DNA of 64,000 bases, from positions 512,001 through 576,000 of the forward strand of contig CBDBIB010000001.1 in the NCBI GenBank assembly GCA_965205945.1, given 5' to 3'. The stretch comes from Bdellovibrionales bacterium. Its GTDB lineage: Bacteria; Bdellovibrionota; Bdellovibrionia; Bdellovibrionales; UBA1609. Below the pieces are notes generated by a model. The model was not told where the DNA came from. It did not search any database and saw nothing but the letters and a program-made list of their open reading frames with translations. Numbering within the stretch: the first letter of the stretch is position 1; the number at the start of each line of letters is the position of its first letter. The position numbers and the translations under genes were made by a program. Below, piece after piece: positions 54,820 through 60,195 of this stretch.

Positions 54820-55763
54820 TCATTGGTTTAGCTCCTATGGAGGGTGTTTTAGACCCTCTTATGAGAAAATTTATTACTAAAGTAAGCCATGTAAACTATT
54901 GCTCAACAGAGTTTGTTAGAGTTACGAATAAAGTACTCCCTAAGCATACTTTTTTTCATTATGCCCCCGAGCTAAACAATAACTCTAAAACTGAATCAGG
55001 AACCCCTGTGCTTGTACAATTACTAGGGGGGCAACCTGAATGTATGGCTGAAAATGCTTACTTAGCACTCTCTCTTGGAGCATATGGTATTGATATAAAC
55101 TTTGGCTGCCCGGCTAAAACCGTAAACCGTCATGATGGAGGGGCCTCTTTACTTAAATCCCCACAAAGACTTTTTAACACTATTTCAACTATAAGAAAAA
55201 AAATTGGTAATAACATACACCTTTCAGCAAAAGTTCGCCTAGGGTTTTCTGATAAAAGTAAGATTCTAGATATTTCAAAAGCCTGTTCTGATGCTGGGGC
55301 GAGTTGGCTTACCATTCACGCTAGAACAAAAGATGAAGCTTATAGACCTCCTGCTCACTGGCATTTAATAAAAAAAATGAAAGAGGTTTCAAATATACCT
55401 GTTTTTGCAAATGGTGACATTTGGGACCTTAAGGCTTATAAAAAATGTGTACTCGAATCAAGCTGCACTAATGTGATGATTGGACGAGGTCTTATAAGAA
55501 ATCCGTTTCTTGCATCTGAAATAAAAGAAAATATTGAACTTGATGCTGATTTAAAAAACCAAAACACTCTTAAGCTTATCCTTGCTTATTTAAATGAGGC
55601 TCAATTTTTATATGGTGAAAAAACCGCATTAGGCCGCATTAAACAATGGGTAAAAATATGCTCTCACCCTACAAACCTGTTTTTTAAAAATCTATTTGAA
55701 GAAATAAAAAAAATTCGTACTGCAAAAGAAATTATTAAACTTATGTCAAAGAAATTTATTTAA
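54816..55763 (+). CDS. tRNA-dihydrouridine synthase (DusC-like)
   Basis: LAPMEG, INFGCPAKTVNRHDGGA, HART, ANGD, MIGRG. Confidence 0.92.
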   Translation: MIIGLAPMEGVLDPLMRKFITKVSHVNYCSTEFVRVTNKVLPKHTFFHYAPELNNNSKTESGTPVLVQLLGGQPECMAENAYLALSLGAYGIDINFGCPAKTVNRHDGGASLLKSPQRLFNTISTIRKKIGNNIHLSAKVRLGFSDKSKILDISKACSDAGASWLTIHARTKDEAYRPPAHWHLIKKMKEVSNIPVFANGDIWDLKAYKKCVLESSCTNVMIGRGLIRNPFLASEIKENIELDADLKNQNTLKLILAYLNEAQFLYGEKTALGRIKQWVKICSHPTNLFFKNLFEEIKKIRTAKEIIKLMSKKFI

Positions 55764-56332
55764 AGAAAAACTCCTGCGCCGAAAGTTAGATCCATTGAGG
55801 AATAAGTTTTTCCACCTAAAAGATATTTTAAATTTCCTGAAAAAAACATTCTAGAATTCCAAATATAACGACCACCAAACCTTACAAAGGGGCCACCACG
55901 AATTTCACTATCAAGCTCTACAGATTTTAAAAACCTTTCCTCAACTCCAAACCCATAAAAATATGCTGTTTGGCCCACACCGTTAATATATACATTCCTA
56001 GCTTTAAACTCTGACTTAACAGGGCTCCCTTTAAAATAAAAATTTATAAAACCACCTAAACCAAAACTTAAATTTTCTTGACTAATTAAACTGGTTTGAG
56101 CTCCACCAAAAACCCCCATGGCAATTTTAGTAGAAAAATTTATTTCATACTCTGCACCAACAGCGCCCAATGCAATTCTTTTTATATCTTTACCACTATC
56201 GGCTTGAAATGTTTCATGCTGTAAGGCCATTGAAAACACTAGTGAATCCGCATAAGATTCGCTAATAATCATAAATAAAGCTATCAGCACTAATAAAAAT
56301 TTATTAGCTTGCTTTAAAAATTGTCTCATCAT
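55760..56332 (-). CDS. Small outer-membrane beta-barrel protein
   Basis: From ATG 56332: signal peptide ending SYA, about 8 amphipathic strands, C-terminal LTFGAGVFL; overlaps the upstream gene by 29 bp. Confidence 0.72.
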   Translation of the reverse strand: MMRQFLKQANKFLLVLIALFMIISESYADSLVFSMALQHETFQADSGKDIKRIALGAVGAEYEINFSTKIAMGVFGGAQTSLISQENLSFGLGGFINFYFKGSPVKSEFKARNVYINGVGQTAYFYGFGVEERFLKSVELDSEIRGGPFVRFGGRYIWNSRMFFSGNLKYLLGGKTYSSMDLTFGAGVFL

Positions 56333-57986
56333 AATTCTGCGCGCCTTTATAGCTGTAGACTTTTTTGATCTTATTTCTAAAAACTCTCCAGTTAATATTT
56401 GTCTCTTTATTCTTAGAAATTTTTTCTTGAATTCTAAACTGTGTTCTTTCATCTAAAAGATTTATGGCTTCCTTATGATCAATACTGTGTTCTTTAAACC
56501 ATTTTATCTCAGACCCTGACAAATTAGTAAGAAATACTTTAAGTTTAGTTATATCTTCTAAATCAATCCAAGACATACAAGGTATTTCAGCTCTTAAAAC
56601 ATCATTACTTTTCATAGCATCAACTTTAGAAAGTTCACCTTCTGACAATCCATAAATCATATGCACTACTTTAGCATTAACAGATTTTTTCTCTGTGCCT
56701 GATACTTTAAAAGAGTCAGCATTAAGAAAATTTACAAAGCTTTTATACTGTTTATCGGTTGCATGATCTCTTAATGGATCAAACATCAATAAGTCATTAA
56801 TCTTATCTAAAACATTTGAGTCTGTAGATTCTGAAACAAAATTCATAAATTGATCTTTAAATAATTTATATAAAACAATATAATGCTCATTTAAACCATT
56901 TTTAAAAACCTCACTTAAATTATCAGCCTTAGTAGGATACATTGCACTAAATGCTTCTTCAACTAATGCATGAGGCTTAGCATACCTAAGCCTTGCAAGC
57001 GCTACAGAAATAACCGAAAGAGTATTTTTATTAAACCCTTTAGATCTTTGATTGTGCAAAACACTTGAAGCTCTTTTTTCAAAATTATAGACTTCATGAA
57101 TAACCTTATAAGTTTCGTTTAAAATAATTTCAGAAATTTGATTCTGAATTCGAATGATTTCATAAAATTGAATTTGTGTTTGAAGATCCGGCATATGTGC
57201 CCATAAAATATGAGCTGTAGATCCTGGAGATTTCTTATAAGCATCATTTATATTCTGACACAAAGATCCAAAATTAAAGGTTTCAAATTCATGACTATTT
57301 AACGAAATATCTGTGCCATTCTCTAATTCATTATTTTCTCTTTGAGTCTGAGCAACCTGTATACCTTCACCGCCACCAGACATAGTAACCTCACCATCAC
57401 CTTCAGATCTAGATTTCCAAACTCTTGCTAAAAACCACAATGCTACAATAAAACCAATGGAGAAAATTAAAATCCATAAAAATTGACCATTTTTTACTAA
57501 GGTTTTATATGCACCAAAAATAAAATCAGATTTAATATTGTTAACAGCATCTCCTAATTTTGGAGTATCATCTAAGACTGTAAATGCTGTATCTTCTGGA
57601 AGAAAAAGTCTTTCTTTAAGGGAGGATTTTACAAGGGCCATCTCTTCTTTAGAAATCTCTCTTTTTTGAATAAAAACAACTTTTCTTTCATAAAGATTTA
57701 AAACATTTTGTATTTTTGAATCATGTGCATTACCAGTTTTTTGATATAAACCAGGAAGGTTAACTATCAACTCTTCATCTAGCTTAGAATCTTGCCTCTT
57801 TAATTCAATACGAATAGTCAAACTGTCTTCTAATGTATAATCTTTTAAAAGCTGCTCGATTTCAATTTTATGATATTTACTAACAGTTTCATAATCTGAC
57901 TTTATACCAAAGGCATTAGACAGTATAAAAAATAACAATGCCAACACTAATACCGTCTTTTTAATTAAGTTTTTAACTAAACCCAC
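56304..57986 (-). CDS. Single-pass membrane protein; putative FliF-like periplasmic domain plus FliG-like cytoplasmic domains
   Basis: Signal peptide, ~140-aa exported domain, TM FLWILIFSIGFIVALWFLA, helical cytoplasmic part; SD GGAGGGAG. The CDS is solid, the fold call is tentative. Confidence 0.55.
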   Translation of the reverse strand: MGLVKNLIKKTVLVLALLFFILSNAFGIKSDYETVSKYHKIEIEQLLKDYTLEDSLTIRIELKRQDSKLDEELIVNLPGLYQKTGNAHDSKIQNVLNLYERKVVFIQKREISKEEMALVKSSLKERLFLPEDTAFTVLDDTPKLGDAVNNIKSDFIFGAYKTLVKNGQFLWILIFSIGFIVALWFLARVWKSRSEGDGEVTMSGGGEGIQVAQTQRENNELENGTDISLNSHEFETFNFGSLCQNINDAYKKSPGSTAHILWAHMPDLQTQIQFYEIIRIQNQISEIILNETYKVIHEVYNFEKRASSVLHNQRSKGFNKNTLSVISVALARLRYAKPHALVEEAFSAMYPTKADNLSEVFKNGLNEHYIVLYKLFKDQFMNFVSESTDSNVLDKINDLLMFDPLRDHATDKQYKSFVNFLNADSFKVSGTEKKSVNAKVVHMIYGLSEGELSKVDAMKSNDVLRAEIPCMSWIDLEDITKLKVFLTNLSGSEIKWFKEHSIDHKEAINLLDERTQFRIQEKISKNKETNINWRVFRNKIKKVYSYKGAQNYDETIFKAS

Positions 57987-59556: not shown

Positions 59557-60195
59557 CTATCTCCCTATTTCTTTTTCTAACTGCTCAATAACTGATTTAA
59601 TTTCATAATTTTTAGAATATAAACTAAAGGATCTCTTATAAGAGTTTAAAGCACTTTTCTTATTACCTTTTAAATAACTTAAATTTCCTTCTAAAAGACT
59701 CACCACAGCTCCAGGTGTTTTTAGTCTCTTTAAATTTATAACTTCTGCTCCAGCTTTACTAAACTCACCCCGTAAAAGCTGCTTTTGAAACGCTAGGACA
59801 CTTAAAATTTGAGAGGTGTTTAAATTCTGCATTTTTTCAACCATTTTTTCTTCAACTTCTAACGGAAGAAGCTTCTCTTTTCTTTTAAGCTTTACATTTA
59901 ACTCTCCTTGTTTCCAATCAGAAGGAAGAATCATTTGGTAATCCTCATATTTATCCGAAATAAATTTTAAATAAATAAAATCACCTTTTGCAATCTGTGT
60001 AAAATTCACTTCTAAGGGAGTTCTTCCTATTGAATTACCCAGGTCATGACTCCCATCTCCAAGAATGACCTCAGCTCCAGGGTTAGAGTTTATTTTAATA
60101 ACTTTACCCTTTTTAGGTAAGACTCCACACCCCACAAGGCTTAATATAAATACAGCACTTAAAATTTGAAACAATATTTTCTTATCTATATACAT
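59557..60195 (-). CDS. Lipoprotein with PEGA-like domain and C-terminal TPR
   Basis: Lipobox LVGC; INSNPGAEV...IGRTPL; LEGNLSYLKG...ALNSYKRS. Confidence 0.75.
   Translation of the reverse strand: MYIDKKILFQILSAVFILSLVGCGVLPKKGKVIKINSNPGAEVILGDGSHDLGNSIGRTPLEVNFTQIAKGDFIYLKFISDKYEDYQMILPSDWKQGELNVKLKRKEKLLPLEVEEKMVEKMQNLNTSQILSVLAFQKQLLRGEFSKAGAEVINLKRLKTPGAVVSLLEGNLSYLKGNKKSALNSYKRSFSLYSKNYEIKSVIEQLEKEIGR

Follow-up and report, generated by a model that had tools for sequence, protein, structure and literature searches.

A predicted FliF–FliG-like fusion protein encoded beside its own MotA and MotB in a bacterium of the Bdellovibrionales

The fusion gene and the layout of its product

We analysed a 64,000-nt stretch of a genome from a Bdellovibrionales bacterium (assembly GCA_965205945.1, contig CBDBIB010000001.1, positions 512,001 to 576,000 of the forward strand), which we refer to as the window, and focused on an open reading frame (ORF) of 560 amino acids (aa) whose product probably joins parts resembling the flagellar rotor proteins FliF and FliG in one chain. 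The gene lies in a cassette with genes for a MotA-like and a MotB-like stator subunit, a lipoprotein and a small exported protein, and a gene for a giant surface lipoprotein adjoins the cassette (Table 1). An earlier note on this DNA had described the 560-aa product as a FliF ring domain fused to the middle and C-terminal domains of FliG; the ORF and every string quoted in that note are found in the translation. The start codon is GTG, with AAGGAGG 8–9 nt 5′ of it, and the ratio of nonsynonymous to synonymous substitution rates (dN/dS) between the gene and its closest orthologue is 0.21 at a dS of 0.43. Because the ribosome-binding site is strong and dN/dS is this low, we count the ORF as a real gene under selection.

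A word-indexed search returned 38 homologues at 44–100% identity, with Bdellovibrionales as the one organism name given, all of them unnamed or ‘hypothetical’, and an exhaustive phmmer search of 1.84 billion cluster representatives matched 20 clusters only, among which were full-length relatives of the same size at 22–30% identity. The narrow family was found in the host genus only (3 of 301 genomes). We modelled the protein with AlphaFold2 from a 33-row alignment (mean predicted local distance difference test (pLDDT) score of 73.5) and folded the cytoplasmic part alone (pLDDT 87.7). The N-terminal helix is probably a cleaved signal peptide, or else a first transmembrane helix (TM1), with cleavage suggested by a consensus AFA. 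The exported domain that follows is modelled as a1 (32–49), b1 (56–64), a loop (67–87), a short helix (89–96), b2 (99–107), a2 (113–127) and b3 (135–139), in which the loop is of low confidence and holds an invariant P78-G79 pair within a conserved LPG motif. It is a single domain of ~115 residues; by model and alignment, the first two ring-building motif domains of FliF (RBM1 and RBM2) and a full beta-collar are not present. An amphipathic helix precedes the transmembrane (TM) helix in the model, a disordered linker spans residues 194–231, and the cytoplasmic part is all-alpha over residues 239–543.

Table 1. Features of the fusion gene and the adjoining genes, in window positions.
Feature	Position	Strand	Basis
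Predicted FliF(RBM3-to-C-tail)–FliG-like fusion protein, 560 aa	56304..57986, stop codon included	minus	ORF list, ribosome-binding site, dN/dS, homologues, profile chain
N-terminal hydrophobic helix (model helix 2–23), residues 1–27	57906..57986	minus	model; family consensus AFA before residue ~26
Predicted periplasmic RBM-like domain, residues 28–143	57558..57905	minus	model, VIA-align, collinear hhalign through sister family
Predicted TM helix, residues 169–193, equivalent to FliF TM2	57408..57482	minus	model, invariant GQFLWI motif, FliF alignment via sister protein P0066
Segment like the FliG-binding C-terminal tail of FliF, residues 235–265	57192..57284	minus	transitive: P0001 aligned with P0066, and P0066 with E. 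coli FliF 512–552
Predicted all-alpha FliG-like region (N-, M- and C-like parts), residues 266–545	56352..57191	minus	model (pLDDT 87.7), Foldseek, VIA-align, hhalign chain
Putative torque helix LLDERTQFRIQEKI, residues 510–525	56412..56459	minus	E. coli FliG alignment
Exported protein, ~190 aa, putative small outer-membrane beta-barrel	55760..56332	minus	signal-peptide-like N-terminus, alternating pattern, position
MotB-like stator subunit, 251 aa	58008..58763	minus	Pfam OmpA 8.8e-15, MotB_plug 9.9e-8; NCBIfam MotB families below cut-off
MotA/PomA-like stator subunit, 266 aa	58753..59553	minus	Pfam MotA_ExbB 6.2e-19; NCBIfam PomA 1.9e-33, MotP, MotA
Lipoprotein, 212 aa, lipobox LVGC	59557..60195	minus	homology to the TPR lipoproteins that occupy this place in sister clusters
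Giant surface lipoprotein, continuing past the window end to a full 1594 aa	60406..64000	minus	motifs fn3, IPT/TIG and GLUG; directly adjoins the cassette upstream

Likeness of the fusion protein to FliG and FliF

A Pfam FliG_C scan of 41 genomes from the same taxonomic family recovered canonical FliG (~345 aa) in 28 of the 41 and also yielded ORFs of 570–610 aa. Nine sister ORFs (557–601 aa) sit in a cluster like the one in the window, with a lipoprotein, MotA, MotB, the long ORF and a small outer-membrane-type protein. Seven of these nine proteins pass the Pfam cut-off of FliG_C (up to 1.5e-12, at residues 461–553) and two score below it; three pass FliG_M (3.2e-7) and one passes FliG_N. The proteins P0068 and P0069 carry the NCBI name ‘FliG C-terminal domain-containing protein [Bdellovibrio bacteriovorus]’. 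We used two syntenic Bdellovibrionota families of long fusion ORFs, the L026-type and the L023-type, as intermediates, and ran hhalign in local mode against a set of 11 FliG sequences, which included E. coli FliG taken from NC_000913 (L033), and a set of 13 FliF sequences.

The fusion family aligned with the L026-type end to end (hhalign 96.3%, E 1.8e-9, 518 columns) and with the L023-type over 487 columns (93.5%, E 2.4e-7), and the two intermediates aligned with each other over 538 columns (97.2%, E 3.7e-11). The L023-type in turn matched FliG at 98.1% (E 6.8e-14), with residues 274–570 of the family set against FliG 18–337. When the three families were merged, the profile matched FliG at 43% (E 2.5e-4), and residues 253–541 of the fusion protein (P0001) fell on E. 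coli FliG 17–316; in a scan of the phylum the merged profile also pulled in ORFs of canonical FliG size (339–371 aa) at profile positions of about 340–557, with E values of 1e-13 to 1e-16. A hidden Markov model (HMM) of the family, compared with the sister protein sequences, gave weak collinear pieces only. In terms of sequence comparison, likeness to FliG and FliF exceeds chance only through the intermediate families. The assignment to FliG made in the earlier note holds along this chain, with the difference that the cytoplasmic part appears to span the whole of FliG and not the middle and C-terminal domains alone.

For the exported half, the L023-type aligned over residues 25–279 with FliF 227–549 (hhalign 48.7%, E 1.8e-4), and the merged family covered the same span at 19% (E 1.2e-3). 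The L023-type alignment is collinear through RBM3 helix 1, a Pro-Gly loop, strand 2, helix 2, strand 3, TM2 and the C-terminal tail, with the short Pro-Gly loop standing where FliF has a beta-collar of ~100 residues. Transferred to the fusion protein, RKVVFIQKR would be strand 2 and ISKEEMALVKSSLKERL...FTV would be helix 2 and strand 3, so that the strings once read by eye as an RBM3 pattern do fall on FliF RBM3 in the transitive alignment. LPGLYQKTG, with the invariant P78 and G79, is on this alignment a predicted remnant of the collar loop. Past the TM helix, SPGSTAHILW (254–262) aligns with DPRVVALVIRQW of the FliF tail, and W262 is nearly invariant. The earlier note had taken SPGSTAHILWAHM for the EHPQ segment of the FliG middle domain; that placement did not survive, as the segment aligns with DPRVVALVIRQWI of the FliF C-terminal tail, and the motif after the TM helix reads, by alignment, as the junction of the FliF C-tail and FliG-N. 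YscJ_FliF_C, scanned over the 41 genomes, found FliF-sized canonical ORFs only. As leads only, FliG_C and FliG_M occur in the nearest clusters of the ESM Atlas; two of these clusters, which come from other phyla and have lengths of ~500 and 620 aa, also show YscJ_FliF_C, on 55% and 22% of their members. The FliF half of the assignment is weaker than the FliG half, yet the alignments are consistent with it.

The torque helix named in the earlier note holds up in the alignment with E. coli FliG, with part of its charges kept. There, LLDERTQFRIQEKI lies on NMSQRAADILRDDL, which sets R514 at R281, E521 at D288 and K522 at D289. The text available from PMC12505986 pairs MotA R90 with FliG D288/D289 and MotA E98 with R281. 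Neither R514 nor E521 varies in any of the 33 rows of the family alignment, relatives at 19–27% identity included. Invariant columns are few in this alignment, seven only (L127, P469, E493, R514, E521, R537 and K539); four of them are charged residues within the last 50 (R514, E521, R537 and K539), and E493 lies just ahead of these.

Fold searches with the models gave matches of the same kind at low scores. For the whole model, the Foldseek list was headed by FliG chains (E 0.06–0.17) and FliF RBM3 rings (probability 0.97–0.99). Residues 28–143, compared by VIA-align, matched FliF RBM3 in 8z5v_A (Z 7.3, root-mean-square deviation (rmsd) 3.3, 90 aligned) and 8zdt_A (Z 7.0, rmsd 3.7, 94 aligned), and other ring-building domains, from MxiG, PrgH, PrgK, EscJ, SpoIIIAG and SpoIIIAF, followed at Z 5.8–6.8. 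In the model the periplasmic domain has an RBM (alpha-beta-beta-alpha-beta) fold like that of RBM3. With the cytoplasmic model, the best 8 Foldseek rows of 350,542 chains were all FliG (E 0.05–1.3), and the best row of a Foldseek-independent search of 48,161 chains was the FliG middle domain 3soh_B (Z 5.3, rmsd 3.3, 70/80 residues), in which chain residues 113–186 pair with residues 123–196 of the cytoplasmic model. FliG entries made up 8 of the 15 best VIA-align rows for this model; full-length FliG scored Z 4.8–5.0, with 211 residues aligned in the Z 4.8 row, and FliG-C scored Z 4.4 (rmsd 3.9, 80/89 residues). For the cytoplasmic part, the fold evidence points weakly to FliG, through collinearity and ranking only. 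The predicted structure, to which the earlier note had looked for an RBM fold and FliG-like folds, contains the former, and for the latter FliG heads the matches of the cytoplasmic part.

Neighbouring genes, conservation of the block and flagellar genes

Among the products of the genes upstream of the fusion gene, the MotA-like protein is far closer to PomA than to TolQ in NCBIfam (TolQ at 0.0034), with all NCBIfam matches below the equivalog cut-offs. All the cassette copies that we compared keep the residues equivalent to MotB D32 and to MotA P173 and P222. By its channel prolines and by the plug, channel Asp and OmpA domain of MotB, the pair is a predicted flagellar-type stator. The 212-aa lipoprotein is related to its counterpart at the L026 locus (phmmer E 4.9e-15; 4.5e-18 with an HMM built with its own sequence left out); TPR matches occur in the sister lipoproteins, and Pfam gives none in the 212-aa protein itself.

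On the other side of the fusion gene, the listed ORF for the exported protein runs from 55760 to 56452 on the minus strand (230 aa) and shares 149 nt with the end of the fusion gene. Residue 41 of this ORF is the first of an N-terminus that resembles a signal peptide, MMRQFLKQ..., and the true start is therefore probably at 56332, which would reduce the overlap to 29 nt. The protein has no Pfam match and no detectable similarity to its counterparts in the sister clusters, where the proteins at this position match OMP_b-brl below cut-off. Beyond the giant lipoprotein gene, two more giant ORFs, of 1229 and 2806 aa, lie on the same strand ~2.4 kb upstream of it and outside the window (G000:C1:579631-591700); they may belong to the same surface-protein region. 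We also considered Zorya and other defence systems and rejected them: PADLOC returned nothing for MotA, the lipoprotein or the putative outer-membrane protein, gave the fusion protein only a chance AbiEi match (0.0026), and gave MotB only generic MotB/ZorB similarity.

The order giant protein, lipoprotein, MotA, MotB, fusion and small exported protein is kept in all five loci from metagenome-assembled genomes (MAGs) of the close family, at 46–83% identity, and the giants of these five loci are 55–82% identical to the 1594-aa lipoprotein. Giants beside the cassettes of other subfamilies are unrelated to it. The five cassette genes stand together, with no other flagellar gene nearby, in the window, in 5/5 close relatives and in the sister families, and the cassette is kept in all three genomes of the host genus. 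Across the phylum the merged profile matches 131 of 401 genomes, part of these matches being canonical FliG. Among the 30 best loci of that scan, taken with 1.5-kb flanks, MotA/MotB genes accompany 11 and a small outer-membrane-type gene 24; in 9 of 10 loci taken with 9-kb flanks MotA and MotB lie within 7 kb, and the tenth is near a contig end. In a maximum-likelihood tree of MotA (29 sequences of the taxonomic family plus E. coli, one broken copy left out, labels resting on 1.5-kb flanks and midpoint root only), the nine MotAs from lipoprotein–MotAB–fusion blocks form one clade (support 95/89; 94% of bootstrap trees), and five MotAs without a cassette gene within 1.5 kb group with E. coli MotA.

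Some genomes hold more than one copy. A close-family MAG has a second partial cassette ~3.4 kb downstream of the first (L089:11043-13685), made up of a lipoprotein of 264 aa, an ORF of 187 aa and a fusion-type ORF that is truncated by the end of the locus; genome G232 of the host genus has two merged-profile matches. A flagellated relative carries a second cassette (L122, G241:C1:395412-398978) in which MotA has two in-frame stops (one TGA, one TAA) beside intact MotB and fusion genes, and which looks like a decaying paralogue.

The host genome (1.87 Mb, 97.3% complete) gave no match to the FliG_C, YscJ_FliF, FHIPEP (FlhA) or Flagellin_N models and no FliMN_C match over cut-off (best 14.6 bits). 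It contains seven MotA_ExbB genes, of which the cassette MotA is the only one of flagellar type, the other six being TolQ/ExbB-like. FliG_C was not found in G000 and G172, the two host-genus genomes searched for it. It is lacking from 13 of the 41 sampled family genomes; 12 of these 13 are 1.2–2.4 Mb in size and the carriers 2.1–4.5 Mb. Loss of flagella goes with genome reduction in this taxonomic family. Most of the 13 also lack a cassette-type MotA, and the cassette is therefore no general trait of flagellum-less lineages. One genome of 2.4 Mb with neither FliG_C nor FliF_C (G312) still has a cassette-like MotA. Most flagellated relatives also carry ORFs of ~230–270 aa over the FliG_C cut-off (E 1e-13 to 1e-7), short stand-alone proteins with a FliG_C domain, such as those at G040:C1:181076-181387 and G016:C1:70142-70450. 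Among the FliG_C matches of the family scan, the ORF at L032:4863-6218 encodes the magnesium transporter MgtE; the match (2.9e-6) is a cross-match of its N domain and a false positive for any FliG count.

Interpretation and comparison with known systems

Taken together, the profile–profile chains, the fold searches and the MotA/MotB neighbours support the prediction that one polypeptide combines an exported domain like FliF RBM3 with a TM helix and with a FliG-like domain that bears a conserved, charged torque helix. With such a protein beside its own MotA and MotB, and no flagellar genes found, the locus looks like the core of an undescribed motor made from flagellar parts. We think that the ORF is probably a highly diverged member of a family of natural FliF–FliG fusions, whose members are predicted to form a ring rotor driven by their own MotAB. 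The one-polypeptide rotor of the earlier note stands in that the three regions occur in one chain; its ‘C-ring’ overstates what the protein offers, with no FliM/FliN over threshold. The RBM domains would assemble the protein into an inner-membrane ring bearing a cytoplasmic FliG-like ring, the beta-collar having shrunk to a loop of roughly 25 residues. Peptidoglycan-anchored MotA5B2 units would use ion flow to push the torque helix and would turn the ring, or at least do work on it, and the recipients of this work at the periplasmic face would be the lipoprotein, the outer-membrane protein and perhaps the surface protein, in place of a rod and filament. Going further, and with less confidence, we tentatively suggest that the cassette may be a self-contained, ion-driven rotary motor in flagellum-less bacteria that transmits torque to the giant surface protein through the lipoprotein and the outer-membrane protein. 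It would then be a third stator-driven surface machine, next to the flagellum and the gliding/T9SS motor of Bacteroidetes, and would either descend from the flagellar motor by reduction or have survived from a pre-flagellar rotor.

A number of results weigh against this interpretation. Pfam and NCBIfam scans of the fusion protein returned no family at E ≤ 1, so that none of the Pfam cut-offs of FliG_N, FliG_M, FliG_C, YscJ_FliF or YscJ_FliF_C was reached; among 33 family members no FliG or FliF model matched at E ≤ 0.1, and a profile search of PDB sequences with the family gave no match at E ≤ 10. The profile–profile comparison that the earlier note had proposed links the family to FliG and FliF by way of the L023-type, whereas the fusion family alone gave non-significant values for both (hhalign 0.6% for FliG and 0.2–0.7% for FliF), and the FliF link is weak (49%) even through the best intermediate. 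Foldseek found no match at E ≤ 1e-3 with the whole model or with the cytoplasmic model. The best FliG score of Z 5.3 is low in absolute terms, and the guidance of the search tool is that unrelated chains commonly score a Z below 8, or below about 13 where helical repeats are concerned. The RBM3 scores of Z 7.0–7.3 tie with those of ribosomal uS3, OsmC and CzrB (Z 6.3–6.9); since ring domains and unrelated folds score alike, the fold is RBM-like and FliF is not singled out by score alone.

At the residue level, the equivalent of D289 is a lysine (K522), and neither K264, which falls on F497, nor R297, which falls in a gap, is kept. The EHPQ segment is placed at ESTD (386–389) by the sequence chain and at NEHY (366–369) by structural ranges, two registers that differ by about 19 residues; H368 in NEHY is invariant among 33 closer relatives, and the EHPQR motif is numbered as in T. 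maritima FliG. The MotA cytoplasmic loop, where R90 and E98 lie in E. coli MotA, did not align with that protein. The export gate (FHIPEP) and FliM/FliN were not found in a genome in which rod genes were not searched for, and the ~190-aa exported protein is a putative outer-membrane barrel by its sequence pattern and position.

The main rival accepts the homology and denies the rotation. The protein would act in the inner membrane as an energy transducer like TonB/TolA or GldM, static or present in few copies; it would take work from MotAB and use it to shift the lipoprotein, the outer-membrane protein or the surface protein into another conformation. The absence of a beta-collar and of RBM1/RBM2, the failure to find an export gate, the partners, which are envelope proteins as in Tol-Pal or Ton systems, and the torque-helix charges, kept only in part, would all suit such a protein. 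However, the best-matching RBM chains come from ring builders (FliF, MxiG, PrgH, PrgK, EscJ and SpoIIIAG), R514 and E521 stand at the stator-contact positions of FliG and are invariant family-wide, and the stator is flagellar-type with a plug and not of the TolQR/ExbBD type. We give this non-rotating transducer a modest share of the probability, clearly below that of a fusion driven as a rotor.

A second alternative makes the cassette a flagellar-motor accessory or a decaying relic of that motor, such as a stator reservoir or brake, with no function of its own in a flagellum-less lineage. Many relatives that carry the cassette are flagellated, the available text of PMC11323537 treats all motAB pairs of Bdellovibrio bacteriovorus as flagellar stators, and the MotA of the paralogous cassette in G241 has in-frame stops; yet in the window all genes are intact and dN/dS is 0.21, the cassette persists in all three genomes of the genus although FliG_C was not found in G000 and G172, the cassette MotAs form a clade of their own, and the six-gene block is kept down to 46% identity. 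We consider this alternative unlikely. Still less likely is a convergent or chance resemblance, in which an unrelated bitopic membrane protein combines an alpha/beta sandwich with helical repeats: the protein itself has no direct significant sequence or structure match and its Z scores lie in the range common among unrelated chains, but the profile chain has three independent links, each above 93% and some 500 columns long, and then reaches FliG at 98%, the synteny with MotAB is identical, FliG tops both fold searches, and the invariant charges match FliG at the residue level.

To our knowledge, the rotor (FliF, FliG) and the stator (MotAB) have been regarded as components confined to flagella. 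In this locus a conserved operon under selection appears to keep both, the rotor parts fused, and joins them to envelope proteins in a genome in which no other flagellar gene was found. If the FliF–FliG-like protein and its MotAB do form a motor, it would be a minimal rotor–stator pair with one rotor protein and without switch, rod or export gate, attractive for structural and single-molecule torque work, and it would bear on the origin or re-use of the flagellar motor. It would also suggest that, in Bdellovibrio-like predators, some of the motAB pairs now assigned to flagella as stators may belong to another machine; Bdellovibrio-like genomes have 1–4 motAB pairs, which are treated as flagellar stators, and a FliG-like neighbour is not mentioned in the portion of that source available (PMC11323537). 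A full-text literature search, with subscription journals outside its coverage, returned no paper on a natural FliF–FliG fusion with its own MotAB.

Compared with the flagellar motor's core (FliF, FliG and MotA5B2/PomA5B2), the cassette is alike in the predicted order of RBM3-like domain, TM2, FliF C-tail and FliG-like region, in an invariant Arg and an invariant Glu that align with R281 and D288 of E. coli FliG, and in the plug, channel Asp, two prolines and OmpA domain of MotA/MotB. It differs in that the fusion is one polypeptide and not two, without RBM1/RBM2 or a full beta-collar, has Lys at the D289 position and matches no curated model; in that a search of the host genome, which did not include rod genes, found no FliM/FliN, export gate or flagellin; and in having as its partners a lipoprotein, a putative outer-membrane protein and a giant surface protein.

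Among published proteins, the FliF–FliG fusion of the Chlamydiaceae comes closest (Bergeron 2016, PMC4768692). As the available part of that paper describes it, this natural fusion joins a shortened FliF (signal sequence, RBM domains and TM) to a FliG-like cytosolic domain in a host that is not thought to be flagellated. At ~330 aa, it retains RBM2 and a further RBM-like domain that is unassigned, its FliG part is limited to a FliG-M-like region, and its proposed partner is the injectisome (SctQ) and not MotAB; the 560-aa protein, by contrast, has a predicted RBM3-like domain, a full-length FliG-like region with a torque helix, and a stator of its own. In Salmonella and Vibrio, engineered fusions of FliF and FliG in one chain still assemble rings, according to the accessible text of PMC6079021 and PMC11481574. 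These are laboratory constructs of full-length FliF and FliG inside the flagellar motor, not natural, truncated or flagellum-independent proteins.

Also close are the FliG C-terminal domain-containing proteins of Bdellovibrio bacteriovorus (576–579 aa) and cassettes of that type, which share the architecture (hhalign 93.5% to the fusion family); at loci L078–L086 the neighbours likewise include MotA, MotB, a TPR lipoprotein and proteins matching an outer-membrane-protein profile. Unlike the 560-aa protein, they are recognised by Pfam FliG_N, FliG_M and FliG_C; their gene order is another, an extra gene of roughly 320 aa is present, and most of the hosts are flagellated. The giant surface protein next to the cassette is specific to the subfamily of the 560-aa protein. 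The proposed working of the cassette resembles GldLM of Bacteroidetes gliding and type IX secretion, described in the available text of PMC8986121 as an ion-driven inner-membrane motor that does work across the periplasm on outer-membrane and surface adhesin components; in GldLM the rotor or transducer GldM is not FliF/FliG and the stator is not flagellar-type; the likeness drawn is one of working principle.

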